A stretch of 64,000 nucleotides of DNA from Lentisphaerae bacterium RIFOXYA12_64_32 (GCA_001803235.1 MHBL01000459.1:4840-68839), one strand, 5' to 3'. Counted from the first letter of the stretch, positions 25,028 to 63,494 are shown. Notes: a model not told the origin generated them from the letters alone. Translations and numbers: made by a program.

Positions 25028-26635
25028 ATGACGGATGCGAGGAAAACCGCCCGGTTGCGGCAGTTGATCGCGCGCCCCGAACTGACGTTCCTGATGGAGG
25101 CGCACAATGGCCTTTCGGCCCGAATCGCGCAGGACGTCGGGTTTGAGGGACTTTGGGCCAGCGGCTTGAGTATCTCGGCGGCTCTGGGTGTCCGCGACAA
25201 CAATGAGGCCAGTTGGACGCAAGTGCTGGAAGTGGTCGAGTTCATGAGCGATGCCACGCAGATCCCGATTCTGCTCGACGGCGACACGGGCTACGGGAAC
25301 TTCAACAATGTCCGCCGCCTGGTCCGCAAACTCGAGCAGCGCCAGGTGGCGGGTGTGTGCATCGAGGACAAGCTCTTCCCCAAGACCAACTCCTACATCC
25401 GCGGCGAACAGCAACCCCTGGCGGATGTCGACGAGTTCTGCGGCCGGATCGCGGCCGGCAAGGACGCGCAGACGGATCCAGACTTCGTCATTGTGGCCCG
25501 GACGGAGGCCTTCATCGCCGGGTGGGGGCTGGACGAGGCCTTGCGTCGAGCCGAGGCGTATCGCCGAGCCGGAGCCGACGCCATCCTGGTTCACAGCAAG
25601 AAGAGTACGGCGTCGGATATCGAGTTGTTCATGAAGGAGTGGCAGCGTCGGCTGCCGGTGATCATTGTGCCGACGACCTACTACTCGACGCCTACGGAGC
25701 GGTTTCGCGAGTTGGGCGTGGCCGCGGTCATCTGGGCCAACCACGGGTTGCGAGGGGCGTTGTGGGCCATGCAGGACGTGTACCGGCAGATACATCGCGA
25801 CCAGTCGCTGGTCAACGTTGAGGACCGTGTTGCACCGATGGCGGATGTCTTTCGGCTCCAGGGCGCTCAGGAACTGCTGGAGGACGAACGGCGTTACCTG
25901 CCCTCCCGTACCGGACAGTACCGGGCCGTCATCCTGGCGGCTGGCCAGGGGGCCGAACTGGACACGTTGACCCGCGACCAGCCAAAGTGCCTCTTGCCGA
26001 TCAACAACAAGCCGGTGCTCACGACCCTGATTGGGTGTTTCAACGAGGTGGGGGTCAAGGACGTCGTCGTGGTTCGCGGCTTCGGCAAGGAACTGCTCGT
26101 GGGGCCGAACTACCGCTGGATTGACAACGACGAACACGCCACGACGCGCGATCTGTACTCGCTCTACCTGGCGCGCGGGGAATTGGACGGTCCGGTGCTG
26201 ATCTCCTACGGAGACATCATTCTCCGCAAGTACCTGGTGGAAGACTTGCTCAATATGCCTGGCGGGGTGGCTGTGGTCATTGACGCCGACCTGCGCGCTG
26301 GCGGCAAGCGACGTGATCTGGCGCTCTGCAGCGAGCCCTACTCAAACGCGTTCTTCAATCGGCGAATCCAACTGCGGCGTGTCTGGTCGGGAAGTGACAT
26401 CTCGTCGGCCCATGGCCAGTGGCCGGGCATCCTGGCGGCCACAGCGACCGGCACGGAGAGCCTGCGCCGCACGCTTAACCGGATGGCCGAGACGCGCGAC
26501 ATCCGCAGTCTGTCCGTCACCGATCTGCTTCAGGAGTTGACCGCGGAGACGGTCGTTGACGTTGTCTACTGCAAGGGCGGCTGGATCGGCATCAATGATG
26601 TCAGTGACTACCAACAAGCCGGGCGATTCCAGTGA
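25028..26635 (+). CDS. pepM: Phosphoenolpyruvate mutase fused to a C-terminal NTP-transferase (cytidylyltransferase-like) domain
   Basis: [27 protein letters not shown], signature [25 protein letters not shown]; then AVILAAGQG...PKCLL...ISYGDI...WIGIND; AGGAG RBS. Confidence 0.95.
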
Positions 26636-27774
26636 TCAATACGGCACAATTCGGCGACTTGCTTCGGTCTTACGGCTATGACTTCTGCACGGGCGTGCCC
26701 TGCTCATTCCTCAAGGGGCTGATCAACGATGCCCTGAACCAGACGGATTACATCATAGCGCCCAACGAAGGGGAAGCCGTGGCGATTGCCTCGGGGGCCT
26801 GGCTGGGAGGGCGAAAGCCGGTCGTGCTTCTCCAGAATTCAGGGCTGGGCAATGCGGTCAACCCGCTCAGTTCGCTGAACTACGTCTTCCGTATTCCCGT
26901 GCTGGGTTTCGTCAGTCTACGTGGCGAACCGGGCCAGAAGGATGAACCGCAACACGTGCTGATGGGGCAGATCACGACCGGGATGCTGGACCTGCTGCGC
27001 ATTCGGTGGGAATTCCTCGACCCGGATATCACTACGGCAGCAGGCCAACTCGCCCGCGCGGACGCGGCCGTGGCAGAGAGAGAGTCATTCTTTTTCGTGG
27101 TCCGCAGGAAGACGTTCACCGACGTGCCCTTGGCGCCCAGAGTGCAGGTGGTGCAACCGCGCTCCGTGCCGGGGGTGGCAGATGATGTTGGTCCGCGACC
27201 GAGCCGCGTGCTGGTTCTGAGGACTGTTCTGGAGTATGCCGGTGACGCCGTGATCATTGCCACGACGGGGTACACGGGCCGGGAACTCTACGAACTGGGG
27301 GACCGGAAGCAGAATTTCTACATGGTTGGCTCCATGGGGTGTGCCAGTTCACTGGGCCTGGGCTTGGCTCTGGCGCAACCGCGGCGCAGAGTCATCGTGC
27401 TGGACGGCGACGGCGCAGCTTTGATGCGGCTTGGAGCTTTGACGACCCTCGGTTGCTGTGCCCCGGCAAACCTGCTTCATCTGGTCTTGGACAATGGCTG
27501 CTACGAGTCCACCGGCGCCCAGCAGACGGTCTCGGCCAGCGTGGATTTCGCCGGGGTCGCGGCGGCATGTGGATACCCGCTGGCAGAATCGCTGCCTTCG
27601 CTGTCCAGTTTTTCAGAGTTTGTCAGGATCTGGATGAACAACTCTGCTCCCCAGCTTGCCCTCGGGCGGATTCGGATTGCCGTCGGAGCGGCAGTGGGTT
27701 TGTCGCGGCCGACCCTGTCTCCCCCGGACGTCGCCGAGCGGCTGCGCGGCAGTGCGGGGGTGTCCTCGGAATGA
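26632..27774 (+). CDS. ppd: Phosphonopyruvate decarboxylase
   Basis: [62 protein letters not shown], ThDP motif [20 protein letters not shown]. Confidence 0.93.
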
Positions 27775-27877
27775 GCCGAACGGATGGAGTTGTGGTCACT
27801 TGTTGTGGCGCCGGGAGTCTGTGCCGGCCGCGGAGCTGAGGTCGAGTATCAGTCCGGGACAGTTGAAAGAACCGCGG

Positions 27878-29314
27878 ATGAAGACGCCGAAAGTCATGCT
27901 GGTTTGTCCGCCCAGGACCATTCTCAGGTCCAGCGTGAAGCGATGCTGCACTCCGATTGGCCTCGCGTATGTTGCGGCGGTCCTTGAGAAGAACGAAGTG
28001 GAAGTCCAAGTTCTGGACGCCTTTGCGGAAGGCTATGACACCGAAGAGGACGTGGGGGGTGGCTATGTGAAGGTCGGGCTGTCGGCCGTCGACATACAGC
28101 AACGTATTTCGGCCTTCTCGCCGGACTTTGTGGGCGTGACCTGCGCTTTCACCAGCGAGATAGGCAACGCCACCGACGTCTGCAGGTTGGTCAAGAAGCA
28201 GGATCCCCGGATTTCCGTGGTCCTCGGCGGATTGCATCCAACCAACTACCCTCTTGAAACGTTGGCAATGTGTCCGGAGATCGACTTTATCATCCTGGGG
28301 GAAGGCGAGTTCAGGATGCTGAAACTTGTGCGGGGCGAAAGGGATTTCGACGGCCTTGTCGACGGCAAGACTCACACGGTGAACCTGCCACGAACGCGTA
28401 TCGAGAATCTGGACGAGCTGCCGTTCCCCGCAAGGCACTTGCTGAAGATGGATCTCTACCTGAAGATCAACAAACACATCTCCCCATACCCCAGAAAGCA
28501 ACGTACGGAGCAAATTCTGACCAGTCGAGGGTGTCCCGGGCAGTGTGTGTTCTGCACCAGCAGCAGGTTCTGGGGCGCGAAGTTCAGGAAGCGCAGTCCT
28601 GAGAATGTGATCGAGGAGATGAAATACCTCATCAAAGAGTACGGAGTCGAGGAGTTTCAGTTTACGGACGACAGCATGACTCTGGATCGAGCGCGGGCGA
28701 TGCGGATATTCGAGATGATGGAACCGCTGGATGTGATCTTCTGCATGGCCAACGGGACCTTTGTCAACTCCCTGGACGAGGAGCTGATCCGGCACATGCG
28801 AAGGGCGGGGTGTTACCAGATCACCTTCTCCGTCGAGAGCGGGAGCAAAAGAAGTCTTGAGTTGATGAGAAAGCACGTGAACCTCGACCGGGTCAAGCCG
28901 CTGGTCCGATGCTCGCAGCGTTTAGGCATAAGCTGTCACGCCACCTTCGTCCTTGGCATCCCCGGTGAGGCGCCAGAGGACATCAGGGCATCCTTCAGGT
29001 TCGCGGCTAACTGCGATTTTGACTCGGCGTCCTTCTTTGTCGTCTCGCCGCTTCCCGGATCGGAACTCTACGATCTGTGTGTGCAGCAGAATTACCTCAC
29101 CGATACGTCGTTTGACAAGATGGACTTCAAGTCCGCGAAGATCAACAACCCGTCTCTGCCGCCGCTGCTTCTGGAGCGGTTGATCATCAACCAGAACACC
29201 CTTTTCATTGTGAAGTATCTTGTGAGGCACCCCGTTAAGTTTTTCAGAAAGTACGGGCTTTTCATGTTGAACAATCCGCGCGAGATCCCCAAGGTATTCG
29301 GGAGGGTCACCTGA
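27878..29314 (+). CDS. Cobalamin-binding radical SAM protein (class B methyltransferase-like) #1
   Basis: PIGLAYVAAVLE, GGLHPT, GEGE, LPFPARHL, TSRGCPGQCVFC, RSPENVIEE, FTDD, VESG. Confidence 0.9.
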   Translation: MKTPKVMLVCPPRTILRSSVKRCCTPIGLAYVAAVLEKNEVEVQVLDAFAEGYDTEEDVGGGYVKVGLSAVDIQQRISAFSPDFVGVTCAFTSEIGNATDVCRLVKKQDPRISVVLGGLHPTNYPLETLAMCPEIDFIILGEGEFRMLKLVRGERDFDGLVDGKTHTVNLPRTRIENLDELPFPARHLLKMDLYLKINKHISPYPRKQRTEQILTSRGCPGQCVFCTSSRFWGAKFRKRSPENVIEEMKYLIKEYGVEEFQFTDDSMTLDRARAMRIFEMMEPLDVIFCMANGTFVNSLDEELIRHMRRAGCYQITFSVESGSKRSLELMRKHVNLDRVKPLVRCSQRLGISCHATFVLGIPGEAPEDIRASFRFAANCDFDSASFFVVSPLPGSELYDLCVQQNYLTDTSFDKMDFKSAKINNPSLPPLLLERLIINQNTLFIVKYLVRHPVKFFRKYGLFMLNNPREIPKVFGRVT

Positions 29315-29320
29315 TTGACG

Positions 29321-31222
29321 ATGCGAGCGATCATTTTGGCGGCAGGCATGGGAACGCGGCTTCGCCGAGTCTTGGGAGGCAGGCCCAAGCCTCTGTTTGA
29401 GGTCGGCGGCATGAGCCTGTTGGAGCATTCGCTGACGTCGCTGGCGGTGGCCGGAATCCGGGAGGTTGCGGTCGTGGTCGGGTATGAGGGGGGGGCAATA
29501 CGCCAAACGCTGGCCAACGTTGCGGGAGGCCTTGCCCTGGAAGTCGTCGAGAATCGTCTTTACGGGACAACGGGCAGCATGCACTCCCTCCACCTGGCGC
29601 TGCCACGGCCGCAGGAGTGCCTGGTTCTGGATGGCGACATCGTCTACTCGCCGGAGATCCTGACCCGCCTTCTCGGAAGCCGGGACGAAGATGTCGTTGC
29701 GCTCGCGGAGTGCTCCGGGAGCGGCGACGAGGTCTACGTGACTCTGGACGAGAAGGGGACCGTGTCGCACCTGGGCAAGACGCATCCTGACGGCGGTACG
29801 GTCTTGGAGTTCACGGGAATTGCGAAGTTCTCCGTGCCGTTCCTGGAGAGCTTGATCCTGCTTCACGAGGAGAACTTCCGCAACGGGATCCAGGGTGAGT
29901 ACTGGGAGGACTGTGCTTTCAGGGCGGCAAGGCTGCAGCCTTGGTATGGGCTGTTCACGCCTCTGCCGTGGTCGGAAGTGGACAAAGAGGCGGATGTCCC
30001 ACGGGCGGAGCGAGTTCTCCGGGAAATCGGCAGAACTCACCCTCACTTGCGGGCCGGTGCAGGGAAGATAGAGTTCGGTCTGATGCACACGCCAATGACC
30101 CCCGTCAAGCGGAACATTCTGTTGAATCCCGGTCCGGCCACGACGACCGACACGGTCAAGTACGCGCAGGTGGTCCCGGACATTTGCCCTCGGGAGGCCG
30201 AGTTTACCGCCTTGCTTGCCAGGATTGGCCTTGCCTTGGTGCGGATCGCCGAAAGCACGGAAGACGAGCATGCCGCCGTCCTCTTTGGCGGCTCCGGGAC
30301 CGCGGTGATGGATGCCGTCGTCAACTCCATGGTCCCGGCCGCCGGCAAGCTGGCGATCGTTGACAACGGCGCCTACGGCCGTCGGCTGGTGCAGATTGCC
30401 CGGAGCTATGGTATCGCGCCTGCCGTCATTTCGTTGCCGTGGACAGTTCCCGTAACCCCCGCCATGGTCCGCAAGGTCTTGGCCGAGGATCGAGCCATCA
30501 CGGGCTTGACCATGGTGCACCATGAGACCACCACCGGATTGGTTAACCCGGTGGCTGAAATAGGACCCGTTGCGGCCGAGTTCGGTTGCCTCTTTGCCGT
30601 CGACGGAATCTCCAGCTTTGCCGGCATGCCCCTGGACGTGAGGGGAGCGGGGATTGACTTCCTTCTCTCCACCTCGAACAAGTGCCTTCAGGGAATGCCG
30701 GGGGTGGCTTTTGTGATTGCCAGCCGGACCGCCCTGGAAAGGATTCGCGACTATCCACGGCGTTCTTACTACCTGAATCTCTACGACCAGCACACCAGCC
30801 TCCAGCGCACGGGCGAGATGCGCTTCACCGCCCCGGTGCAGTGTTTCTACGCCCTGGAACAAGCGATCCGGGAGTTCAAGGCCGAGGGAGCTGTCGCCCG
30901 GCACAAGCGCTACGCGGACTGTTCTGTATGTCTTCGGGCGGGGTTGCGTGAGTTGGGGTTCTCCCTGCTGCTGGACGACGCGGTCGCCTCAACGATGATG
31001 ACCACGGTCGTCGAACCTGCCCATCCCCTCTGGCGCTTCTCCACGGTCCATGACGAACTGTACCGGCGCGGGTTTACCATCTACCCCGGAAAGCTATCTG
31101 CAGCCCGCACGTTTCGCCTTGCCAACATCGGGGCCATCACGCTGGACGATATCCGCGCGTTTCTTGCCGCGCTCCGTGACGTGTTGACTGGAATGGGACT
31201 GAAGCGGGAGGATCTGCATTGA
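29321..31222 (+). CDS. NTP-transferase (PntC/LicC-like) fused to 2-aminoethylphosphonate transaminase
   Basis: N-terminus MRAIILAAGMGTRL...PKPL...LDGD...WSEVDKEAD; C-terminus ILLNPGPATT, GSGT, NGAYG, HHETTTG, VDGISSF, STSNKCLQGMPG, RFTAPVQ, IYPGK, FRLANIG (PhnW/AepZ family). Confidence 0.92.
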   Translation: MRAIILAAGMGTRLRRVLGGRPKPLFEVGGMSLLEHSLTSLAVAGIREVAVVVGYEGGAIRQTLANVAGGLALEVVENRLYGTTGSMHSLHLALPRPQECLVLDGDIVYSPEILTRLLGSRDEDVVALAECSGSGDEVYVTLDEKGTVSHLGKTHPDGGTVLEFTGIAKFSVPFLESLILLHEENFRNGIQGEYWEDCAFRAARLQPWYGLFTPLPWSEVDKEADVPRAERVLREIGRTHPHLRAGAGKIEFGLMHTPMTPVKRNILLNPGPATTTDTVKYAQVVPDICPREAEFTALLARIGLALVRIAESTEDEHAAVLFGGSGTAVMDAVVNSMVPAAGKLAIVDNGAYGRRLVQIARSYGIAPAVISLPWTVPVTPAMVRKVLAEDRAITGLTMVHHETTTGLVNPVAEIGPVAAEFGCLFAVDGISSFAGMPLDVRGAGIDFLLSTSNKCLQGMPGVAFVIASRTALERIRDYPRRSYYLNLYDQHTSLQRTGEMRFTAPVQCFYALEQAIREFKAEGAVARHKRYADCSVCLRAGLRELGFSLLLDDAVASTMMTTVVEPAHPLWRFSTVHDELYRRGFTIYPGKLSAARTFRLANIGAITLDDIRAFLAALRDVLTGMGLKREDLH

Positions 31223-32016
31223 ACTTCGGTGAGATCCGGGCCCAGATGTACGCCCACAACCTCCGGGGTTACCCGTGTTTGCTGGACTGGCGCCACAGCC
31301 CCTACACCTGCCTCAAGGCGCGCTACTACATGGAGTTCAGTGCGGTACTGGTCTGGTTCCTGCAGAAGACGCCCATCACGGCCAACATGGTCACCGTCGC
31401 TTATGTCGCCTGCGGATTTGCGACCATGATCCTGCTGGCCGTGCCCAGCCGATGGGCTGTCCTGGCGGCCATTCTGGTTGCCTTCAACAAGGGGATCTTC
31501 GACTGGAGTGATGGCGCTTTGGCGCGTCTGCGTGGGCAGTGTTCGGGCAAAGGGCACATTCTCGACTGCTACGGCGCCATTGTCAACGACGTCGGACTGC
31601 TCACCGGTCTGGGGCTTTACGTGGCAACGCGGTCAGGCCAGGATCTCTACTGGCTTGCTGTGCCCGTCATTCCGGTCCTCTACGCACTCGATCTTCCCCG
31701 GTTCCGCGACCACATATTGCAGACTACACCTCCTGCCGTCCAGGATGCTCAGTCCAGCGACCGGTGTGCGCTCAAAGGAGCAGAAGAGACGCCGGCCGTC
31801 TCCCGCCTGTCATGGCGCGGCCAGGCTTTTACTGCGTTTGAGGCCATTCTGGACGCTCGTGCCCGGGGTGTGGATACCATCTGTGCTATCCTGGCTATGG
31901 AACTCGCAACGGACATCCGCATCTCATGGGCTGTCTTTCTCTTCCTGGTCTTCAAACACATCGTGATCTACGTGCTGCAGACGGGAAGGTACCTGGCCTC
32001 TGGACCTGACGCCTGA
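31219..32016 (+). CDS. CDP-alcohol phosphatidyltransferase family protein
   Basis: ITANMVT and the signature FDWSDGALARLRGQCSGKGHILD (D..DG..AR...G...D); TTGA overlap. Confidence 0.85.
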   Translation: MNFGEIRAQMYAHNLRGYPCLLDWRHSPYTCLKARYYMEFSAVLVWFLQKTPITANMVTVAYVACGFATMILLAVPSRWAVLAAILVAFNKGIFDWSDGALARLRGQCSGKGHILDCYGAIVNDVGLLTGLGLYVATRSGQDLYWLAVPVIPVLYALDLPRFRDHILQTTPPAVQDAQSSDRCALKGAEETPAVSRLSWRGQAFTAFEAILDARARGVDTICAILAMELATDIRISWAVFLFLVFKHIVIYVLQTGRYLASGPDA

Positions 32017-32038
32017 AACTCAACCGCCTTCGCCACCG

Positions 32039-34081
32039 GTGAGCTTCCGCTGCCCGACGTGCAGGGATCCGCTTGCTCAAGAGACGGAGCACCTTGTCTG
32101 CCGGCGCTGCGAACGTCACTACCCGCTGGTGCGCGGCATTCCGGATTTCCGGACCGAATCAGGGTACTGGTGCAACGTTTCCCGGCAGGTGCTGCGGGAA
32201 CTTGTCGACGACGCCCGGACCTCCGGCGACTGGCGAGCCGCCGCCAACCGCCATGTCCCTGACTACGTCGAGCATTTCACCTCACGGGGCCGCGCGGACT
32301 TCCGTTTCCTCCTCCCCCTCGACAGAACCTCGGTGGTCCTCGATGCGGGGGCCATGTGGGGTGGAATCACCGTGCCGATGGCACCCGAGGCCGGTACGGT
32401 CTATGCGGTCGACAAGACGCTCGAAACCATCGAGTTCCTCGACCTGCGAGCCAAGCAGAGCGGGCTTGGCAACGTCCGCGTCTGTGCCTGCGGGTTGGAC
32501 AAGCTTCCTTTCCAGGACGGCTTTTTCGACATTGTCATCCTTTCCGGAGTGCTGGAGTGGGTTGCCGTTGATGAGGAAACGGTCTTGGCCCGGGATTACT
32601 TCCAGCCGCGGCACGACCGACGTTCCTACGGCCTGGCCCCGGAACGCGTTCAGACTGACGTCCTGACGGAACTACGGCGCGTGCTCAAGGCGACCGGGGT
32701 TCTGTGTCTCGCAATCGAAAATCGCTATGGGCTTCCCTACTTCCTGGGGAAACCGGATGACCACGTGAACGTCAGGTTCGTACCGCTCCTACCGCGGCGT
32801 TTGGCGAACCTTGTGACGCAGTGGCGACTGAACTCACCGTATCGTACCTACACCCACTCAGACCGGGCCCTGCGATCCATGCTGGGTGAAGCTGGTTTCG
32901 ACACCGTGAAGGTCATGGGGTGTTCGCCGCACTACATCGAACCCGATTTCATCTGCAACCAAGTCAGGGCCAGGTACTATCTCAGAAAGCACCGGCATCG
33001 GCTGGGACGAAAGTACGGCCTGATGTCCAGACTCCTCCCCGCCTCCCTTCTGTCGAAGACCATTCCGAGCTTCGTCGTCCTCGCTGGGGGGGCAAACGGC
33101 ACCCAAACCGAGCAGGCCAAACTGGCTCGGGTTTTCGATGACGCCATGGCGCACAAGGCGGTCGGTCCGGTTCGGGAACTCGCCTTGGTCGATAGCCGCA
33201 AGGGTGATGACCTGCCGGCGTGTTTCGAGGTCTGGACGGCCGACGGCTCTGTCCCAAGCCATTTCTGCAAGGTGGCGCGCGACCCCGGTGCCGCGGCGAT
33301 TCTCAAAGACGAGTGCGAGAACATGGGCCGGTTCCATGCCGCTTGCCGCGAGCCCTTCGGTGCCGTGGTTCCTCCCCAAGCCCTTGTCGAACGGGATGAC
33401 GTTCGCATGTTGATTTACCGACACCTGGGCGGCAAGGTCAGCACGCCCAAGGCTCTGTATCGCGGCTTTCTGGCTACCCGTCGCCTTGAGCACGCGGCCC
33501 TGCGGGCGATCGAGTTGTTGTGCGAATTCCAGCGGCAGACGTTCCAGCGGAAGGTCCGCATGAGAGACCTGTTGACAGCCCTTGACGGCTGGCTCGCCCG
33601 CATCGGCGTCCTTGACGCCGCCTCGGCGGCGAACGTCGCTCACCTCAGGGAGGAGCTCGAGAGACTCGGGGACCGGGAACTGCCGGTGTGTGCCGTCCAC
33701 GGCGATTTCAACCTGGGGAACATCATGGTGTGTGGCAAGGAGCGGTACCTCCTGGATTTCGAGCACTACGAGGACACGGGGCTCCCGTTCTTTGACCTTG
33801 GGAACATAACGATATCGACGCTGCTGATGGCCTTCGACGCCCGCGTCTTCCTCGGCCAGGAGCATCATCGTAGGGCCGTCGCCCTTTTCCGATCCTGGGT
33901 TTCCGCGTATCAGAAGTTGAGTGGGATCGACACCGAGGTGCTCCGCTTTCTCTGTCCTCTGGCAGCCTTGGAGCAGAAGGCGAAGACCTATCCCGCGCAC
34001 CGGGATCCGGCCACATATCCCATGTTCCCGGACCCCGTGTTCACAAAACTGTTGGCCCCCCGTGAGTCTTTCTGGCAGTAA
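32039..34081 (+). CDS. Trm112-like Zn knuckle + class I methyltransferase + APH/kinase-like fusion protein
   Basis: CPTC...CRRC...GIPDF; VLDAGAMWG, LPFQDGFFD, GVLEW, AIENRYG; C-terminal VHGDFNLGNI...LDFE...DL. Confidence 0.75.
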   Translation: MSFRCPTCRDPLAQETEHLVCRRCERHYPLVRGIPDFRTESGYWCNVSRQVLRELVDDARTSGDWRAAANRHVPDYVEHFTSRGRADFRFLLPLDRTSVVLDAGAMWGGITVPMAPEAGTVYAVDKTLETIEFLDLRAKQSGLGNVRVCACGLDKLPFQDGFFDIVILSGVLEWVAVDEETVLARDYFQPRHDRRSYGLAPERVQTDVLTELRRVLKATGVLCLAIENRYGLPYFLGKPDDHVNVRFVPLLPRRLANLVTQWRLNSPYRTYTHSDRALRSMLGEAGFDTVKVMGCSPHYIEPDFICNQVRARYYLRKHRHRLGRKYGLMSRLLPASLLSKTIPSFVVLAGGANGTQTEQAKLARVFDDAMAHKAVGPVRELALVDSRKGDDLPACFEVWTADGSVPSHFCKVARDPGAAAILKDECENMGRFHAACREPFGAVVPPQALVERDDVRMLIYRHLGGKVSTPKALYRGFLATRRLEHAALRAIELLCEFQRQTFQRKVRMRDLLTALDGWLARIGVLDAASAANVAHLREELERLGDRELPVCAVHGDFNLGNIMVCGKERYLLDFEHYEDTGLPFFDLGNITISTLLMAFDARVFLGQEHHRRAVALFRSWVSAYQKLSGIDTEVLRFLCPLAALEQKAKTYPAHRDPATYPMFPDPVFTKLLAPRESFWQ

Positions 34082-34090
34082 CTGACGACG

Positions 34091-35647
34091 ATGCACGGAC
34101 GTCTGCACAAAGTCCTTCTGATCAATCCCCCCGTTACGCTTCTCCCCGACAAGCGGAACTTCAACGTGAATTTCCCGACGGGGCTGGCCTACGTGGCCGC
34201 GGCTCTGGAGCTGGGCGGATATGAAGTCGCGGTCCTGGACGCCATCGCCGAGGGCTACGACCGTCAGGTCCTGGTCGGAGAAGGGCCTGAGCAAAGGCTG
34301 CAACTCGGCCTGTCGAACGAAGCGATCTCGGAGCGCGTAAAGGCGTGCCGCCCCGACGTCGTCGGAATCAGTGCCATGTTCTCGTTCCAGCGCGAGAACT
34401 ACCACCGGGTTGCGGCGACGGTGAAGACGGCGGGGCCCAACACTCTGGTGATCGTGGGTGGCGCCCATGCGACGGCCGACCCCCGCGAGGTGATGTCCGA
34501 CGCGCAGGTCGACTATGTCGTGATCGGCGAGGGCGAAAAGACCAGCGTCGAACTTCTTGACCACCTTTCCAGTGGCCGCGATACCTGCACGCTGGATGGA
34601 ATCGCCTACCGTGATTCCCAAGGTGTGACATGGGTCAGACCGCCTACCTCCCTTCTGAAGGTGGACGACCTTCCGATGCCTGCCCGCCATCTCTTCCCGG
34701 TGGAGCGTTACTTCGCGGCCGGGCAGCGCCATGGTGCCCATCGGGGGGCCGGGTTTCGGAGCCTGCCGATCCTCACGTCACGGGGGTGTCCGTTCCACTG
34801 CTGTTTCTGTTCCGCCTACCAGATGTTCGGGCGCACCTACCGGGCCAGAGACGCCGCCGCCGTGCTCGCGGAGATCGACGAATTGGTCAAGACCTACAAC
34901 GTGGAAGACATCTACCTCAACGACGACCAGTTCCTGGCCCAGAAAGCCAGGGCGATGCGGATCCTCGACGGGATCATCGCGAAGAACTACGGAATCACCT
35001 TCGATGCGCCGAACGGGATCTCCCCGTGGATGTTGGACGAGGAGATCGCCGCCAAGCTGAGAAAGGCCGGATTCCGGGACCTGTTCATCGCCGTCGAGTC
35101 CGGGAATCAGTGGGTCCTCGATAACATCATACGCAAACCGGTTCAACTGCGCGACATCCCAGACAAGGTGCAGATCCTCAAGAGGCAGGGTTTCAAGATA
35201 TCGGTCGCCTTGGTGGTTGGGAGTTTCTCGGACACGCATGTGGAAACCCTGCAGCAGATGCAGGACTCTTTCGATTACGTAACGGGTCTGGACGTTGATG
35301 ACTTGACCGTCTCGGCCCTTACCCCCCACGCCGGATCGTCGGCCTTCGAGGTAGGGCAGAGGCGCGGCTACATTGGTGCGCAGTACACCGAAAGTGGCTA
35401 CGACCGGTCCCAGGTCAACACGCCCCTGTGGACCAGCGAAGAGGTGAACCGACTCATCGTGATCGAGAAGGCGCTCTTCTTCCGGAGGAGACACGGGTTG
35501 GTCAGGTTTGCCGTGAGGCCGTTCCTGAGAACCTGCAGGTCGGTCCTGCTCAAGCCTCGGTACAGACTGCTCGACGCGCTCCATCGTTGGTGTCGCATCT
35601 GGCGTAGGAAGAGCGTGCCGAGCGCCGCAATCGGAAGCTTGGTTTGA
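34091..35647 (+). CDS. Cobalamin-binding radical SAM protein #2
   Basis: PTGLAYVAAAL, GGAHAT, GEGEKT, SRGCPFHCCFC, DDQF, VESGNQ. Confidence 0.9.
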   Translation: MHGRLHKVLLINPPVTLLPDKRNFNVNFPTGLAYVAAALELGGYEVAVLDAIAEGYDRQVLVGEGPEQRLQLGLSNEAISERVKACRPDVVGISAMFSFQRENYHRVAATVKTAGPNTLVIVGGAHATADPREVMSDAQVDYVVIGEGEKTSVELLDHLSSGRDTCTLDGIAYRDSQGVTWVRPPTSLLKVDDLPMPARHLFPVERYFAAGQRHGAHRGAGFRSLPILTSRGCPFHCCFCSAYQMFGRTYRARDAAAVLAEIDELVKTYNVEDIYLNDDQFLAQKARAMRILDGIIAKNYGITFDAPNGISPWMLDEEIAAKLRKAGFRDLFIAVESGNQWVLDNIIRKPVQLRDIPDKVQILKRQGFKISVALVVGSFSDTHVETLQQMQDSFDYVTGLDVDDLTVSALTPHAGSSAFEVGQRRGYIGAQYTESGYDRSQVNTPLWTSEEVNRLIVIEKALFFRRRHGLVRFAVRPFLRTCRSVLLKPRYRLLDALHRWCRIWRRKSVPSAAIGSLV

Positions 35648-35652
35648 CCCCG

Positions 35653-36579
35653 ATGGTCTCCGTCGTCATCCCCTGCTACAACGCCGCCGCGTTCATCGGC
35701 GAGGCCGTCGGGTCAGCCTTGATGCAGACGATGCGAGACCTGGAGGTCATTGTCGTCGACGATGGCTCTACGGACGACACGGCCGACATCGTCAGGGGTA
35801 TCGACGACGCCCGCGTGCAGTACATTTTCCAGGAGAACGCGAGCCAGGCGATGGCCAGGAATGCCGGCATCGGCGTCGCCCGTGGTGAGTTCGTCGCTTT
35901 TCTCGATGCGGATGACCGATGGTACCCCGAGAAACTGGCGAAGCAGATGCCGCTCTTCACGACTCCGGACGTCGGCCTGGTCTGCTGCCAGTTCGACATC
36001 GCTGACCCAGAAGGAACCGTCGTGACCCGGGGCCGGCAAAGGTTGCATCGGGGCCGCGTGTTGGCTCAGCTTCTTCTCGATAACTTCGTCTGTTGCTCAT
36101 CCGTGGTGGTCAGGTCTTCACTTCTCCATGGCGAGCACCGTTTCAGGGCGGGGCGGAAGGGGGTGGAGGACTGGGACCTGTGGCTGAGGCTGGCGATGCG
36201 AAGCCAGTTCGACTTCGTCGAGGAGGCGTTGCTTGGCTATCGTGCGCACCCAGGCTCAGTATCCCGGAACCTGGACTTAATCGTCGAGGGCGTGCGTGTG
36301 ACGGCCACGGCCACGGAACGCGACATCCGTTCCAGGTGCGCCCCAAGCGAGCAGGCCGGCCTACTGCGGAATCTGCACCGGGCCTTGGCGCGTGAAAACA
36401 TGGCTTACGCGCACTGGCTGTTGCGTGAAAGCAGGAACGCGGATGCGGCGGGAGCCTGCAAAGCGGCGCTGCGGGTCGCGCGCCCAACTCTTGGCATCCT
36501 GCGCGACGCAGCAAAGTTCGCAGTTAAGGCGGGGGTTTGGGGGATCCTTGGAAGACCCGGGCACGGGAATGGTCGCTGA
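35653..36579 (+). CDS. GT2 glycosyltransferase
   Basis: VSVVIPCYN, VVDDGSTD, ARNAGI, FLDADD, EDWDLWLR. Confidence 0.92.
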   Translation: MVSVVIPCYNAAAFIGEAVGSALMQTMRDLEVIVVDDGSTDDTADIVRGIDDARVQYIFQENASQAMARNAGIGVARGEFVAFLDADDRWYPEKLAKQMPLFTTPDVGLVCCQFDIADPEGTVVTRGRQRLHRGRVLAQLLLDNFVCCSSVVVRSSLLHGEHRFRAGRKGVEDWDLWLRLAMRSQFDFVEEALLGYRAHPGSVSRNLDLIVEGVRVTATATERDIRSRCAPSEQAGLLRNLHRALARENMAYAHWLLRESRNADAAGACKAALRVARPTLGILRDAAKFAVKAGVWGILGRPGHGNGR

Positions 36580-36670
36580 AGTGAGGTCGGGCCGGTCTGG
36601 ACAGGCTCTCCGGAAACGGGCTGTCAAGCGATGATCCAGTGAGTCGTGCGGGACCGCCCGTGGATATCAC

Positions 36671-38146
36671 ATGCGTATGAAAGTCCTCTTTGTCTACCCC
36701 GGCTACATTGTGCGGGAGGTGCCGCTTAACCTCCTCTACGTGAGTGCCTGTGCCCGGGCTCGCGGGCACGAGTGCCGGCTCTTCCACTTCAGCGAGTTCC
36801 GGGTCCCTGAATGGTTCCGGTCGACCGGCGACCGGATCGCCGAGCGATTCGGCACCATCCTCGACGAGTACCGCCCGGATGTGGTCGGCTTCAGCGTGAT
36901 GGTTCAGGACTATCAGGTCACGAAGCGCCTCACCTCCCTGGCCAAAAAGCGCGGCGCGACGGTGATCTGGGGCGGGATCGAGGCGATCCTCGAACCGTTG
37001 CGGTGTCTCTCCGAGCCGGACGTTGACTTCGTCTGCACCGGTGAGGGCGAGGCGGTGTTCCCCGAGTTCCTCGCCTTTCTCCAGAACGGCCGCACGGGTT
37101 CGCCGCCGCGGGGCATATGGTATCGGGACGAAGCCGGCAAACCGATCGACAACGGCCGGCCGGACCTGATTGCGGACTTGGATGCGCTGCCGTTTCCCGA
37201 TCGCGAGCTGCTGCCGGCCCGCTACTACCGTGCCGAATTGACCGGCGCGAACGTCATGACGGCGCGCGGGTGTCCGTTCCCCTGCACGTTCTGCCAGAAC
37301 CAACGACTCATGGACATCTTCCGTGGGCATGGAAGTTTTGTGCGCTATCGCAGCCTCGAGAGTGTACTGCAGGAGATGGAGTGGCTGGTCAAGACCTACG
37401 ATTCGCCCTGTTTCTACATGTCCGATGAAATTTTCACGCTCAACCGGGCCCGGGTCTTGGAGTTCTGCCGAGTGTATCCCTCCCGGATCGGCAGGCCTTT
37501 CCTGGTCCAGACGCGAGTCGACCGCATGGATGAAGAACTGGCCGAAGCGGTGAGCCGGGCGGGCTGCGTCCTGGTCAACTTGGCCATCGAGAGCGGGAAC
37601 GACGAGATCCGGTGTCAGGTGCTGGGGAAAGGCACGTCCCGGGAGCAGATCGAAAAGGCGTTTCGCGTCGTGCACGAGCATGGGATGATGTCGTCCAGCT
37701 TCAACATGATCGGAGTGCCCGGGGAGACCCTCGCGAGTATCTGGGACACCATTGAGGTGAACCGCAAGCTCAAACCCGACCGGATCCTGTGCTCGATCTT
37801 CATGCCTCTGCCCGGAACTGAACTGGGCGAATCCTGCCGCGCCAAAGGAATGACGCGGGGCAATGTCTACGAAACGACCAACTACTACTCCCAGGTCACT
37901 GTCGATCTGCCGGGAATCCGCCCCCGGACGCTCATCGGATACCAGGGGTTCTTTGATTGGTTTGTTCTACTTCCCAGATGGCTGCACCCGGCGGTCCACG
38001 CGCTGCGCATTCTCTATCAGCTGGCCGTGCCGCCGGACCTGCCGCGGCATACCCCGCTGCGGAAAGCCCGGGAAATCGTGGTGGAGTTCGTTTACCAGAG
38101 CAAGCGCTTTCTGCCCGGCAAACGCCTGAAGGTCAAGACACGCTGA
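36671..38146 (+). CDS. Cobalamin-binding radical SAM protein #3
   Basis: PLNLLYVSA, WGGIEA, GEGE, LPFPDREL, ARGCPFPCTFC, SDEIF, IESGN, NMIGVPGET. Confidence 0.9.
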   Translation: MRMKVLFVYPGYIVREVPLNLLYVSACARARGHECRLFHFSEFRVPEWFRSTGDRIAERFGTILDEYRPDVVGFSVMVQDYQVTKRLTSLAKKRGATVIWGGIEAILEPLRCLSEPDVDFVCTGEGEAVFPEFLAFLQNGRTGSPPRGIWYRDEAGKPIDNGRPDLIADLDALPFPDRELLPARYYRAELTGANVMTARGCPFPCTFCQNQRLMDIFRGHGSFVRYRSLESVLQEMEWLVKTYDSPCFYMSDEIFTLNRARVLEFCRVYPSRIGRPFLVQTRVDRMDEELAEAVSRAGCVLVNLAIESGNDEIRCQVLGKGTSREQIEKAFRVVHEHGMMSSSFNMIGVPGETLASIWDTIEVNRKLKPDRILCSIFMPLPGTELGESCRAKGMTRGNVYETTNYYSQVTVDLPGIRPRTLIGYQGFFDWFVLLPRWLHPAVHALRILYQLAVPPDLPRHTPLRKAREIVVEFVYQSKRFLPGKRLKVKTR

Positions 38147-38183
38147 AGATGGGACTCACGTGTTCGGTGTTCAGCGAAGGAAT

Positions 38184-38372
38184 CGACCTGTGCGGGTAAA
38201 TCCGACCGCGCGGAAGTACGGCCGCAGTGGCTCGGCGCGTCCCGCGCCGAAGCGGGGTGCGCCGGCCGGCCTGTCCGGCGAAGCTGCCTGGGCGAAGTCG
38301 GATCCCCGGCCGAGGGCCTCGGGCCGGGACGGCCCCGAGCACCCTGCTGCGGTCCCGGAGGTCCCGCGCCAC
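38184..38372 (+). repeat. Type B hairpin repeat with a single CGACCTGTGC end
   Basis: Begins CGACCTGTGCGGGTAAATCC; GTGGCTCGGCGCGTCCCGCGCCG...GGTCCCGGAGGTCCCGCGCCAC body also found at 43483-43618 and (reversed) 63494-63683. Confidence 0.8.
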
Positions 38373-38473
38373 GGCCTGCCACTGCGCACAACGTGCTCAG
38401 CCCGAACACCGAAACCCTGATTCCAGCACGCGCGGTGTGATCGCTGAGTAGTTCTGAAGATGAAAGACTGAAG

Positions 38474-39814
38474 ATGAAGGTCCTGCTGGTCAACTTACCG
38501 TTCTACCGGCTCATGGGCAGCCACTACAACGGGCTGAACCTGGGACTGTGCTACATTGCGGCCGTGCTGAATCAGAGAGGGCACGCCTGCCGGATCTACA
38601 ACGGCGATTACCTCGATTCCGAAGTGTACCCCGACCAAGTGCAGCTTTTCAACGGCATCGACTCCTACAAGGTTGCACACTCCAACTCAAATCACCCTAT
38701 CTGGCAGGAGACGGTCCAGGCGATCCTGGCCTCTGAGCCGGATTTCGTCGGGCTCTCGATCTTCACCGCGGATTTTCCCGCGGCCCGCATTGTCGCCAGC
38801 CTCCTGAAAGAGCGCCGGCCAGAGACCCGGGTGGTGGTCGGCGGGCCGCATGTTACCGTCAGTGGCGGCAAAGTCCTCGAGGAATGCCCCGCGATCGACT
38901 ACGCGGTCGTCGGCGAGGGCGAGTTCGCTATGCGCGACCTGGTCGACGGCGTCGCGCCCGAGACGGTGCCGGGGCTGGTCTGGCGCCGGGATGGAAAGGT
39001 GGTTTCCGGCTTGCCTGCGGCCCCGATCGAGGACCTTGACGCGCTGCCGTTTCCGGACCGGGCGCACTTCCACCCACCCGGGGCTCGCTACAATACGCAC
39101 TTTGTCCTCACCTCCCGGGGTTGCCCCAATTGCTGCACGTTCTGCGCCAGCCCGCGCATCTGGAACCACCGGGTTCACTTCCGCAGCATCGACAGCGTGG
39201 TGGCCGAACTCCAGGCGCTCAAGGATTCCGGCCAACGGTTTGTCCAGTTTCAGGACGATACCTTCACGTACCGCAAAGAGCGCCTGCTCGGATTGATGGA
39301 TGAGATGGTGAAACGGGAGCTCGGGCTGTCGTGGATCTGCGACACCCGCCTGACGTGCATCGACGCTGAGATCCTCGAAGCCATGAAGCGGGCCGGTTGT
39401 GCGCGGGTGAAGGTCGGGATCGAATCGGGAAGCCCCCGCATTCTCAAGGCGATCCGCAAGGGAATCACTCCTGAGCTTGCCCTGGAGAAGACGGCGCTGA
39501 TCAAGAGCGTCGGCCTGGGCCTGGGCGTTTATTTCATGATCGGGTTCCCCGGCGAGACGAATGAGGACGCGCGCCAGACCATCGAACTCGCCAAGCGCAT
39601 CGGCGCCGATTATTACAGTCTCTCCATCGTGGCGCCCTACCTCGGGACCGAGATCTACAACGACCACGTTGCGTCGGGCGCCGTCTCCGAGAAGAACCAC
39701 TGGGAGTACTTCTTCCACCAGAGCAAAGAGTTGATTCTCACCTCCGGGATTGACCCCGCCATCGTCGATGAGTTCCTCGCTCTCAATCAATACGGCAAAG
39801 GAAAGCGAATATGA
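38474..39814 (+). CDS. Cobalamin-binding radical SAM protein #4
   Basis: NLGLCYIAAVL, GGPHVT, GEGE, SRGCPNCCTFC, DDTF, GIESG, FMIGFPGET. Confidence 0.9.
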   Translation: MKVLLVNLPFYRLMGSHYNGLNLGLCYIAAVLNQRGHACRIYNGDYLDSEVYPDQVQLFNGIDSYKVAHSNSNHPIWQETVQAILASEPDFVGLSIFTADFPAARIVASLLKERRPETRVVVGGPHVTVSGGKVLEECPAIDYAVVGEGEFAMRDLVDGVAPETVPGLVWRRDGKVVSGLPAAPIEDLDALPFPDRAHFHPPGARYNTHFVLTSRGCPNCCTFCASPRIWNHRVHFRSIDSVVAELQALKDSGQRFVQFQDDTFTYRKERLLGLMDEMVKRELGLSWICDTRLTCIDAEILEAMKRAGCARVKVGIESGSPRILKAIRKGITPELALEKTALIKSVGLGLGVYFMIGFPGETNEDARQTIELAKRIGADYYSLSIVAPYLGTEIYNDHVASGAVSEKNHWEYFFHQSKELILTSGIDPAIVDEFLALNQYGKGKRI

Positions 39815-40965
39815 GTTCCGCGGTGAAGGTCCCCTTGCTCCGTCTTTCTTACTCCGACGCCGAGGTCCGCGAACTCCAGGACGAACTGGCCGCGATCCTC
39901 CGCAGCAACTACCTCACCATGGCGAGCCGCGTCAAGGAGTTTGAGCGGCTGTTCGCCGGGTTCTGCGGCACCCGCTTTGCCCTCGGCACCAACAGCGGGA
40001 CCAGTGCCCTGGAGATCCCGCTCCGCGCCTTGCGTGTTGCCGGCGGCAGCGTCGTGATGCCCTCCAACACGTACATGGCCACGCCCATTGCGGCGGTCAA
40101 GGCCGGGGCCAAGGTCATCTTTACCGACTGCGAAGCCGACAACCTACAGATGGACCCTGACGACCTGGACCGGAAGATCCGGGACGACACGCGGGCCGTT
40201 CTCCTGGTTCACATTGGCGGCATCATTTCGCCCCGGCTCGAGGAAATCCAGCGTATCTGCGCTCGGCGCGGGGTGCCGCTGGTGGAGGATGCCGCCCACG
40301 CCCATGGCGCCGAGTATCGCGACCGACGTGCGGGCAGCTTTGGCGAGGCCGCGGGTTTTTCGTTCTATCCCACCAAAGTGCTGACCACCGCCGAGGGCGG
40401 CATGATGACCACTGACCGCGAGGACCTCTATCAGTTGGGCACCGTGTTTCGGGAACATGGCAAGGCGGACCACGGTTTCAACGTCCACACCGAGATCGGC
40501 GACAACTGGCGATTCAGCGAGATTCACGCCGCGCTCGGCATTCAGCAAATGCGAAAGGCCGACTCCATCCTGGCCGAGCGCCGCCGGCTCGCAGCACTCT
40601 ATGACCGCTTGCTCGACACCGTGCCCGAGATCCGTCCGCTACGGATTCCCGCGCACGTGCGGTCCGCCTACTACAAGTACATCGTGTTCCTGCCGGCGCA
40701 TCTCTCCCGCGACCGGCTGAAGTCGAGGCTGAAGGACGAATTCGGCGTCATGCTGACGGGGGAAGTTTACTCTGATCCCTGCCACTCCCAGCCGGTCTTC
40801 ACCCGGCAGCCGGAGCTGGTGGCCAACGCGGCGGGTGATCGGTTCCCGGCCACGGAAACCGTCTGCCGCCAACACGCCTGCCTGCCACTCTACCCCGGAC
40901 TGCGGGACGAGGAGGCGGCGTATGTCGTCCAGAGTTTGAAACAGGTGCTCGTCACATGGAACTGA
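39811..40965 (+). CDS. DegT/DnrJ/EryC1/StrS sugar aminotransferase
   Basis: NSGTSAL, EDAAHAHGA, FSFYPTKVLTTAEGGM, GDNWR, CLPLYP. Confidence 0.92.
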   Translation: MSSAVKVPLLRLSYSDAEVRELQDELAAILRSNYLTMASRVKEFERLFAGFCGTRFALGTNSGTSALEIPLRALRVAGGSVVMPSNTYMATPIAAVKAGAKVIFTDCEADNLQMDPDDLDRKIRDDTRAVLLVHIGGIISPRLEEIQRICARRGVPLVEDAAHAHGAEYRDRRAGSFGEAAGFSFYPTKVLTTAEGGMMTTDREDLYQLGTVFREHGKADHGFNVHTEIGDNWRFSEIHAALGIQQMRKADSILAERRRLAALYDRLLDTVPEIRPLRIPAHVRSAYYKYIVFLPAHLSRDRLKSRLKDEFGVMLTGEVYSDPCHSQPVFTRQPELVANAAGDRFPATETVCRQHACLPLYPGLRDEEAAYVVQSLKQVLVTWN

Positions 40966-41927
40966 GCGGCCGCAAATTCCTGGTTACCGGCGGAGCCGGT
41001 TTCATCGGCTCCCACTTGGTCGACACCTTGCTCCGCGAAGGTGCCGGAGAGGTCGTCGTCTTCGACAATCTTGTCCGTGGGACCCAGGCTAACCTGGACA
41101 GCGCGCGCCATGATCCGCGGCTCAAGGTCTTCCCTGTCGAACGGGCCGATCTCATGGATCGAACGGCCGTTGCGGAGGCCGTGCAGGGCGTTCACGGCGT
41201 CTTCCACATGGCCTCACATTGTCTGGGGGCCTGCCAGGAGAACCCACGGGCCGGATTTGACGCCAATGTCGTTGGGACCTACAACCTGCTCGAGGCCTGC
41301 GTCGCGAACGATCGCCCGCGCGTGCTCTTCTCGTCCAGTTCGTCGGTCTACGGCAATGCCCGCTATGTGCCGATGGATGAGCAGCACCCGTTCAACAATC
41401 GCAACTTCTACGGCGCCGGCAAGATCTGCGGCGAGGCCCTGTGCCGTGTCTTCCACGCCGAATACGGCCTTCCCTATGTGGCGCTGCGCTACATGAATGT
41501 CTATGGACCACGGCAGGACTACCGCGGCACCTACGTGGCGGTGATCATGCGCATCATCGATCGGCTGCACCAGGGCCTGCCCCCCATCGTCAATGGCGAC
41601 GGCTCGCAGCGTTTCGACTTTGTCTATGTCGAAGACGTATGCCGCGCCAATCTCCTGGCCATGGAGAAGGACGCGACCGTGGACGAGGCCATCAATATCA
41701 GTTCCGGCAGCAGCACCTCCGTACTGGAACTCTGTCGCCGGATCATGGCGCTTATGCAGCGGGAACTGCCCGTCGAATTTGTGCCCCAGAAAACCGACGT
41801 CCTGGTCACCCATCGGGTCGGCAGCACGGAGAAGGCCGCGACCCTCCTGGGGTTCACGGCGTCGACCCCCCTGGACGAGGGACTGCGCCAGACGATCCGT
41901 TGGAAGCTGAACCGTCGCGATGGGTGA
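40956..41927 (+). CDS. NAD-dependent epimerase/dehydratase (extended SDR)
   Basis: LVTGGAGFIGSHL, SSSSVYG, YGAGK, RYMNVYGPRQ, DFVYVED. Confidence 0.92.
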   Translation: MELSGRKFLVTGGAGFIGSHLVDTLLREGAGEVVVFDNLVRGTQANLDSARHDPRLKVFPVERADLMDRTAVAEAVQGVHGVFHMASHCLGACQENPRAGFDANVVGTYNLLEACVANDRPRVLFSSSSSVYGNARYVPMDEQHPFNNRNFYGAGKICGEALCRVFHAEYGLPYVALRYMNVYGPRQDYRGTYVAVIMRIIDRLHQGLPPIVNGDGSQRFDFVYVEDVCRANLLAMEKDATVDEAINISSGSSTSVLELCRRIMALMQRELPVEFVPQKTDVLVTHRVGSTEKAATLLGFTASTPLDEGLRQTIRWKLNRRDG

Positions 41928-42260: not shown

Positions 42261-42275
42261 CGCGATTGAATCGAG

Positions 42276-43482: not shown

Positions 43483-43618
43483 GACCTGTGACGAAAGCGG
43501 TGGCTCGGCGCGTCCCGCGCCGAAGTGGGGTGCGTCCGCCGCGGCCGGTCCCCGGCCGAGGGCCTCGGGCCGGGACGGCCTCGAGCACCCTGCTGCGGTC
43601 CCGGAGGTCCCGCGCCAC
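43483..43618 (+). repeat. Type B hairpin repeat (shortened copy)
   Basis: GACCTGTG remnant, then GTGGCTCGGCGCGTCCCGCGCCG...GAGGTCCCGCGCCAC. Confidence 0.75.
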
Positions 43619-63455: not shown

Positions 63456-63494
63456 CCGTCCGTCCGCTCCGCGATCGTCAGCAACGACGGACGG
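63456..63494 (+). terminator. Possible hairpin after the GT2 gene
   Basis: CCGTCCGTC at 63456-63464 pairs with GACGGACGG at 63486-63494; no U-tract. Confidence 0.25.

Follow-up and report, generated by a model that had tools for sequence, protein, structure and literature searches.

A cobalamin-type radical SAM enzyme among the aminoethylphosphonate genes of a Lentisphaerae surface-glycan locus

In the fosfomycin pathway of Streptomyces, the cobalamin (B12)-dependent radical S-adenosylmethionine (SAM) enzyme Fom3 methylates C2 of cytidine monophosphate (CMP)-2-hydroxyethylphosphonate, using methylcobalamin and a 5'-deoxyadenosyl radical (reviews PMC9204698, PMC12931638). Tde1415 from Treponema denticola was experimentally shown to interconvert phosphonoacetaldehyde and 2-aminoethylphosphonate (AEP) by transamination and to form CMP-AEP (Rice et al. 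2019, PMC6697681). The same work reports that ~60% of PepM proteins carry a fused nucleotidyltransferase, for which Fom1 is the precedent. The phosphonyl-tailoring (Pnt) clusters described so far transfer unmodified AEP, and the term "radical SAM" is absent from the text of Rice et al. (PMC6697681). Our full-text literature searches found no B12-dependent radical SAM protein reported in AEP or Pnt clusters and no report of natural aminopropylphosphonate or another C-methylated AEP, and an inventory of pepM neighbourhoods mentions radical SAM for a Campylobacter group only. Here we describe a 64,000-nucleotide stretch of DNA (the window) from Lentisphaerae bacterium RIFOXYA12_64_32 (GCA_001803235.1, MHBL01000459.1:4840-68839), in which the interval 25028-39814 combines a set of AEP genes with four genes encoding B12-type radical SAM proteins, named rSAM1 to rSAM4 in gene order.

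On balance, we favour the view that the interval comprises two or three modules of one surface-glycan locus, with rSAM1 C-methylating CMP-AEP, and does not represent one phosphonate pathway with four tailoring enzymes. The genes of the interval are all intact and lie on the + strand, and from pepM to the GT2 gene they are joined by 4-base overlaps or short gaps throughout. A scan for terminators and promoters gave nothing above chance. The features of the interval, and the genes that follow rSAM4 in its cassette, are as follows.

25028-26635, + strand: PepM with a C-terminal NTP_transf_3 (PntC/LicC-type) domain (TIGR02320, PF12804, motif)
26632-27774, + strand: Ppd (TIGR03297); its start overlaps the pepM stop by 4 bases
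27878-29314, + strand: rSAM1, cobalamin-type radical SAM protein of the phosphonate-operon clade (PF02310, PF04055, CPGQCVFC)
29315-31222, + strand: bifunctional PntC cytidylyltransferase-AEP transaminase of the Tde1415 type (6PD1/6PD2, TIGR03301)
31219-32016, + strand: CDP-alcohol-phosphotransferase-like membrane protein (PF01066)
32039-34081, + strand: fusion of a Zn-ribbon, a class I methyltransferase and an APH-type kinase (Methyltransf_11/25, APH)
34091-35647, + strand: rSAM2, cobalamin-type radical SAM protein (PF02310, PF04055)
35644-36579, + strand: GT2 glycosyltransferase (PF00535, 1e-34); its start overlaps the rSAM2 stop by 4 bases
36671-38146, + strand: rSAM3, rare cobalamin-type radical SAM protein (PF02310, PF04055)
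38216-38372, no strand assigned: repeat resembling a miniature inverted-repeat transposable element (MITE), between rSAM3 and rSAM4 (blastn)
38474-39814, + strand: rSAM4, cobalamin-type radical SAM protein of a large family (PF02310, PF04055)
39811-40965, + strand: DegT-type sugar aminotransferase (PF01041, 2e-98)
40956-41927, + strand: NAD-dependent epimerase/dehydratase (PF01370, 1e-59)
42276-43481, + strand: GT4 glycosyltransferase, last gene of the rSAM4 cassette (PF00534, 1e-37)

The genes for AEP synthesis were assigned with the NCBIfam equivalog models TIGR02320, TIGR03297 and TIGR03301, which have curated cut-offs. PepM scores 387 bits with TIGR02320 (cut-off 320), contains the PepM-specific motif EDKxxxxxNS and starts at an ATG (25028) preceded by GGAGG. 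Its C-terminal NTP_transf_3 domain is matched by PF12804 on residues 363-479 of the long open reading frame (ORF). Ppd reaches 381 bits with TIGR03297 (cut-off 312), and both TPP_enzyme_N and TPP_enzyme_C are matched. The AEP transaminase corresponds to the C-terminal half of the 29315-31222 protein (TIGR03301, 406 bits against a cut-off of 361). The first-pass annotation, made by a model from the sequence alone, had proposed a complete route from phosphoenolpyruvate (PEP) to AEP, and all three enzymes of this route pass their equivalog cut-offs. That annotation lacked the NTP_transf_3 domain that forms the N-terminal half of the 29315-31222 protein. The protein aligns over its full length with Tde1415 (PDB 6PD1/6PD2; E=2.8e-119, query residues 2-629 on chain residues 2-614) and has the same order of PntC and AEP transaminase domains. 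Because this Tde1415-type fusion and the PepM-nucleotidyltransferase fusion match the findings of Rice et al., the window encodes a standard Pnt core.

The CDP-alcohol-phosphotransferase-like gene and the methyltransferase-kinase fusion also lie inside the interval and were absent from the first-pass annotation. The former product (31219-32016) matches PF01066 at 6e-9, with 36.8 bits against a cut-off of 22. The family motif is D(x)2DG(x)2AR(x)8G(x)3D(x)3D, of which the window protein keeps DWSDGALAR(x8)GHILD and misses the final DxxxD. The same DxxDGxxAR(x8)GxxxD variant, likewise without the final DxxxD, is found in the homologues from three other pepM loci (L099, L100 and L002; contigs and genomes used for comparison are given by such labels). 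Since these homologues share the truncated active-site motif, the CDP-alcohol-phosphotransferase-like proteins of pepM loci appear to form a distinct subfamily.

The window resembles the Fom1/Fom2/Fom3 set of Streptomyces in possessing a PepM-nucleotidyltransferase fusion, Ppd and an operonic cobalamin-type radical SAM protein, and in the proposed attachment of CMP before radical C-methylation. The Fom1/Fom3 parallel drawn in the first-pass annotation thus holds for rSAM1, given the PepM-nucleotidyltransferase fusion and the Tde1415-type fusion. The two systems also differ in several respects. The intermediate in the window is the amine AEP, formed by a transaminase, whereas fosfomycin synthesis uses the alcohol 2-hydroxyethylphosphonate, formed by FomC. 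The nucleotidyltransferase domain of the window PepM belongs to PF12804 and is C-terminal, while that of Fom1 belongs to PF01467 and is N-terminal. In addition, the window contains neither the FomD hydrolase nor the Fom4 epoxidase; instead, the CDP-alcohol-phosphotransferase-like protein and glycan genes follow, and the product would therefore stay bound to the cell surface. The window shares with the Pnt clusters the PepM-NTP_transf_3 fusion, which is typical of surface-phosphonate clusters.

Each of the four radical SAM proteins contains the B12-binding domain PF02310, the Radical_SAM domain PF04055 and one CX3CX2C motif, and by these domains and motif they are assigned to the class B (cobalamin-dependent) radical SAM enzymes. 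Domains, motifs and coordinates agree with the first-pass annotation, which had placed one of four such genes (27878-29314) between ppd and the transaminase gene. The four proteins share only 26-32% mutual identity and so do not appear to be recent duplicates. The 10.6-Mb genome gives six B12-type radical SAM matches to rSAM1 at E<=1e-40, three of them in the window, where rSAM3 is a fourth copy. Because the matches are so few genome-wide and four of these genes lie within 12 kb, their clustering is not due to chance. CobS is encoded in the genome. At least three further B12-type radical SAM paralogues are located elsewhere in the genome (contigs C373, C19 and C194).

Curated cut-offs of hidden Markov models were used in place of a phylogeny against Fom3, PhpK, GenK and HpnP. 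With NF038361 (Sden_1168 family; cut-off 575 bits), rSAM1 scores 348-352 bits, rSAM2 237, rSAM4 140 and rSAM3 88. With TIGR04479 (PhpK/BcpD; cut-off 600 bits) the four proteins score 75-133 bits, rSAM1 giving 85. The hopanoid-type models give at most 198 bits (HpnJ, TIGR03471; cut-off 578) and at most 104 bits (HpnR, TIGR04367; cut-off 650), and no hopanoid genes were found near the four genes in the locus. None of the four proteins thus reaches the curated cut-off of the Sden_1168, PhpK, HpnJ or HpnR family. A search for reference radical SAM proteins in the PDB returned nothing close by sequence, and no members of the Sden_1168 family were found in a scan of 401 gammaproteobacterial genomes. 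SD_1168 (Sden_1168) from Shewanella denitrificans and PhpK/BcpD are class B radical SAM enzymes connected with the chemistry of phosphonates or phosphinates. Among the curated models, NF038361 matches both rSAM1 and rSAM2 best; the two proteins differ from the SD_1168 family in falling well below its cut-off.

rSAM1 is associated with phosphonate operons. A search of 5.8 billion proteins yields a close group of relatives at 47-72% identity, beneath which lies a very large cloud at ~40% identity from Omnitrophota, DPANN and other archaea, Planctomycetota and others. Five of the six close-group contexts (47-68% identity to rSAM1) are pepM operons. Locus L002 (66%) encodes a PepM-nucleotidyltransferase, a class V aminotransferase, a nucleotidyltransferase and a CDP-alcohol-type transferase, and P0012 (66%) encodes a PepM-nucleotidyltransferase, Ppd, AEP transaminase (aepT), the radical SAM protein and a nucleotidyltransferase. 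L085 (62%) carries LicD, the radical SAM gene, aepT, ppd and a CTP_transf-PepM gene. L086 (51%) and L087 (47%) have the order pepM, ppd, radical SAM, aepT, nucleotidyltransferase, which is that of the window. Altogether, five independent contigs carry a relative of rSAM1 (47-66%) directly next to ppd, aepT or pntC, and three of these contigs share the order ppd, radical SAM, aepT. The background comprises relatives at <=40% identity from profile scans of genome and metagenome contigs; in this cloud, among the matches listed, pepM lies within 10 kb in 2 of 159 loci. A Fisher test of 6 of 7 contexts against this background gives p=7e-9.

In a FastTree phylogeny of 318 B12-type radical SAM sequences, rSAM1 falls in a 31-leaf clade with a support of 99. 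The clade also holds a ppd-adjoining B12-type radical SAM protein of L099, a pepM-linked cyanobacterial protein (L004) and a fusion protein from L188, and of the nine members whose context is known, eight are linked to phosphonate genes, usually adjoining the AEP transaminase gene. In the L188 protein, a PntC-like domain (31% identical to the PntC of the window) is fused N-terminally to an rSAM1-type enzyme (42% identical to rSAM1), and the neighbouring gene encodes an AEP transaminase 48% identical to that of the window. PntC thus has the transaminase as its fusion partner in one genome and the radical SAM enzyme in another, which is the strongest hint that rSAM1 would act on a CMP-bound phosphonate; the L188 arrangement likewise supports a nucleotide-bound substrate as in the Fom system. 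Host taxonomy is uninformative on the locus, since no rSAM1 orthologue was found in forty genomes of the same order.

The AlphaFold2 model of rSAM1 has a mean confidence (pLDDT) of 91. Its best Foldseek matches are TsrM, AprD4, MgmA, CysS and TokK, and the TM scores against TsrM, MgmA, CysS, TokK and OxsB are 0.64-0.70. The model thus predicts for rSAM1 the fold of known B12-dependent radical SAM methylases, and also that of AprD4. Taken together with the operon contexts, a place of rSAM1 in the phosphonate pathway is very probable, and by analogy to Fom3 the enzyme plausibly methylates CMP-AEP. The Joint Genome Institute (JGI) label "phosphonoacetaldehyde methylase" on a protein of a neighbouring clade (P0079, 40% identity), and a similarity network that groups Fom3 with HpnJ and MoeK5 (review PMC9204698), serve as leads only.

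Two of the pepM loci contain further gene sets of their own. In L100, from a metagenome-assembled Magnetococcales genome (GCA_015232405.1), the segment 15567-21458 encodes a CDP-alcohol-type transferase, a B12-type radical SAM protein, an Fe-ADH protein, a CTP_transf_like protein, Ppd and a PepM-nucleotidyltransferase. By gene content, this set appears to be an analogue of Fom1, Fom2, FomC and Fom3, that is, of the hydroxyethylphosphonate route, located inside a NeuB glycan locus. A second pepM of the same genome has a B12-type radical SAM gene directly upstream (G042:C23:5280-7668), and this genome contains 19 B12-type radical SAM matches at E<=1e-30. Locus L002 (GCA_028279655.1, 3872-15092) is a pepM locus without a recognisable Ppd, and encodes a fusion of CTP_transf_like and citrate-synthase-like domains, an HD protein, two aminotransferases and three B12-type radical SAM proteins. 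It may represent a different early branch via phosphonomethylmalate or phosphonoalanine.

The neighbourhood of rSAM2 is of another kind. Eight leaves make up the rSAM2 clade (support 99), whose sister is the rSAM1 clade; the two fall in a 49-leaf clade with a support of 88. Synteny between L099 and the window extends over 12 genes, including the SPASM radical SAM protein (66% identity), the flippase (56%), the methyltransferase-kinase (50%), rSAM2 (63%), GT2 (49%), the CDP-alcohol-type protein (40%), the PepM-nucleotidyltransferase (52%) and the AEP transaminase (47%). The methyltransferase-kinase homologue of L099 adjoins the rSAM2 homologue at the same position as in the window. L100 contains NeuB, a nucleotidyltransferase, an rSAM2 homologue (46%) and GT2, and in L101 a 41% homologue adjoins a nucleotidyltransferase in a NeuB locus with pepM absent within 10 kb. 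A GT2 gene lies near or after the rSAM2 homologue in the NeuB loci L099, L100 and L101; homologues of the window's GT2 (35644-36579) adjoin the rSAM2 homologues in L099 and L100, and the rSAM4 homologue in L190. By these contexts, the association of rSAM2 with the block of nonulosonic-acid genes, nucleotidyltransferase or kinase, and GT2 appears to be no weaker than that with pepM, and the target of rSAM2 is plausibly a nucleotide-activated small molecule. In L100 and L101, an NTP-transferase takes the place of the methyltransferase-kinase beside rSAM2. A sequence search of the methyltransferase-kinase against solved kinases and WbdD gave no match, and a WbdD-like capping role was left aside because no solved kinase was matched by sequence.

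rSAM3 and rSAM4 belong to a gene set that recurs in the absence of pepM. rSAM4 is a member of a large, well conserved and uncharacterised family of ~448 residues, found in Chloroflexota, Margulisiibacteriota and others. L189 contains GT2, rSAM3 (59%), rSAM4 (61%), DegT (63%), epimerase (62%) and GT4 (43%), and L190 contains GT2 (45%), rSAM4 (55%), DegT (69%), epimerase (64%) and GT4 (41%); pepM is absent within 10 kb in both. The rSAM4 clade has 33 leaves, none of them linked to pepM. rSAM3 is rare: among 1.8 billion proteins, three representative clusters have >=40% identity, and its only close context is L189, where it lies directly upstream of the rSAM4 homologue. Both proteins are encoded beside DegT, epimerase/dehydratase and glycosyltransferase genes, a context suited to enzymes of sugars such as the sugar C-methylating B12-dependent radical SAM enzymes GenK, GenD1 and MoeK5. 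rSAM3 and rSAM4 thus most likely act on sugars. The first-pass annotation had proposed phosphonate tailoring for the radical SAM proteins, with the caveat that they might act on sugars. The proposal is supported for rSAM1 with its phosphonate-operon clade, and not for all four, given the pepM-free sugar cassette of rSAM3 and rSAM4 and the nonulosonic-acid block of rSAM2; the caveat was right for at least two of the four.

The gene identities, the conservation of the neighbourhoods and the fusion are established by the comparisons above; for the substrate and chemistry of each radical SAM protein, we infer the following scheme. Module 1 (25028-32016) would make and deliver a phosphonate head group. 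PepM and Ppd would convert PEP to phosphonoacetaldehyde, and the Tde1415-type fusion would transaminate phosphonoacetaldehyde to AEP and then join AEP to CMP. rSAM1 would modify the CMP-bound phosphonate, the likeliest reaction being that of Fom3 on CMP-2-hydroxyethylphosphonate. In such a reaction, the 5'-deoxyadenosyl radical would abstract a hydrogen atom from C2 (or C1) and methylcobalamin would provide the methyl group, yielding CMP-aminopropylphosphonate. The CDP-alcohol-phosphotransferase-like protein would then transfer the phosphonyl group from CMP to a hydroxyl group of a glycan or lipid. Module 2 (32039-36579) consists of the methyltransferase-kinase, rSAM2 and GT2, a conserved block of nonulosonic-acid loci. 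Module 3 (36671-43481), composed of rSAM3, rSAM4, DegT, epimerase and GT4, would be a pepM-independent sugar-nucleotide cassette, probably making a radical-modified amino sugar.

Several observations weigh against this scheme. rSAM1 is below the cut-off of every curated family, and its likeness to Fom3 is one of operon content and proposed logic; methylation is assigned to its clade as the commonest class B chemistry. The close-clade sample is small, with nine contexts from metagenomic contigs. The scheme does not account for the second nucleotidyltransferase domain, the one borne by PepM. The clean split into modules is weakened by the rSAM2 clade, which is pepM-linked in three of four known contexts, and by L002, L085 and L100, pepM loci that contain weak rSAM3 relatives (27-32%); because of these relatives, rSAM3 is assigned to the sugar cassette less firmly than rSAM4. 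Moreover, in L084, which holds the closest relative with known context (68%), the neighbouring genes encode GT2, PMT_2 and LPG_synthase_TM proteins, and pepM is absent within 10 kb on both sides, with 27 kb of the contig outside the view. This copy, between GT2 and PMT_2, would fit an rSAM1 whose target is the acceptor glycan, a sugar nucleotide or a lipid, with pepM co-occurring through a shared type of surface-polymer locus, and the family at <=40% identity is common in pepM-free glycan loci of uncultured bacteria and archaea. We nevertheless regard such a target as clearly unlikely: five loci place the gene within the core AEP genes, beside aepT, ppd or pntC and not among glycosyltransferases, one clade member carries a fused PntC-like domain, and the other radical SAM families of the same glycan loci have no such pepM linkage.

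The alternative with the most weight, still an unlikely one, is that rSAM1 serves the phosphonate pathway by a reaction other than methylation, such as rearrangement, dehydrogenation, epimerisation, or ring or C-C bond formation (compare OxsB, BchE and HpnJ). It explains the pepM linkage of rSAM1 equally well; HpnJ and BchE, neither of them a simple methylase, rank next after Sden_1168 among the curated families, and AprD4, a dehydratase, is among the two best structural matches. However, few other obvious reactions on AEP can be envisaged, the characterised class B enzymes are mostly methylases (PMC9204698, PMC12931638), and Fom3, the sole characterised B12-dependent radical SAM enzyme acting on a CMP-phosphonate, is one of them. 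A second reaction suggested in the first-pass annotation, P-methylation to a phosphinate (C-P-C) head group as by PhpK, or by SD_1168 in vitro, deserves hardly any credence. The best curated match for rSAM1 and for 30 of 30 relatives tested (best relative E=7.6e-130, below the 575-bit cut-off) is indeed NF038361, which is named as Sden_1168-family P-methyltransferase, but 348 bits is far under 575, the PhpK model gives a mere 85 bits, and for SD_1168 itself, whose natural substrate is unknown, a C-methylase role has been proposed (PMC9204698). No gene of the locus resembles HEPD or the phosphonoformate or carboxy-PEP steps that lead to a P-H phosphinate. P-methylation requires such a phosphinate in the established biochemistry of phosphinothricin, and it is unlikely here because the locus, in contrast to the setting of PhpK, has no genes to make this substrate. 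Finally, all four radical SAM proteins might tailor the phosphonate by several C-methylations or other steps. This is suggested by the presence of the four genes within 12 kb on one strand, by the two or three B12-type radical SAM genes also present in the pepM loci L002, L086, L099 and L100, and by the Magnetococcales genome with such a gene directly upstream of its second pepM. Yet it is very unlikely, as AEP offers just two carbons, the rSAM3 and rSAM4 homologues keep DegT, epimerase and GT4 in pepM-free loci, and an rSAM2 homologue occurs in a NeuB locus with pepM absent within 10 kb.

The interval lies in the middle of a row of glycan genes on the + strand at ~11.6-59 kb, a ~48-kb locus. 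Besides the genes described above, the row includes methyltransferases, a carbamoyltransferase, a PIG-L deacetylase, NeuB, a CMP-sugar synthetase, a class III aminotransferase, the SPASM radical SAM protein, a Wzx-type flippase, GT2 and GT4 transferases, DegT aminotransferases, two PMT_2 proteins and a Wzy-like protein. The placement of the interval in a surface-glycan locus, as originally proposed, is confirmed by this row with its NeuB, flippase, glycosyltransferases, DegT and Wzy-like protein. A 617-residue protein (21486-23339) has no match in the Pfam scan and is 38% identical to an L099 protein carrying LIC12162 (PF27859), and its homologue in L100 likewise carries LIC12162. In the window, L099 and L100, this protein is located just ahead of the flippase or nucleotidyltransferase and downstream of NeuB/NeuA, and it is a candidate nonulosonic acid transferase.

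By blastn, the MITE-like repeat recurs at 63494-63651 with 90% identity, and partial copies lie at 43500-43618. It makes up most of the 327-base gap between rSAM3 and rSAM4; the corresponding gap in L189 is ~55 bases. The partial copy at 43500-43618 sits inside the 5' extension of an asparagine-synthase ORF, so the gene probably starts downstream of 43488.

Most surface phosphonates are regarded as plain AEP or as N-methyl and hydroxy derivatives of it, and a conserved cobalamin radical enzyme among AEP and CMP-AEP genes predicts a new natural phosphonate. The reading proposed for rSAM1 would assign a defined substrate to one enzyme of the class B radical SAM family, which is large and for the most part uncharacterised. 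The locus also calls for caution, in that a B12-type radical SAM gene near pepM does not automatically encode a phosphonate enzyme; two of the four here are located in a sugar cassette. We suggest, tentatively, that the rSAM1 clade comprises CMP-AEP C-methyltransferases whose product would be a head group, for example 2-aminopropylphosphonate, unreported from nature. If so, then together with the L100 type of locus, the early "antibiotic" chemistry of fosfomycin would be a widespread decoration on the cell surfaces of uncultured bacteria and archaea.

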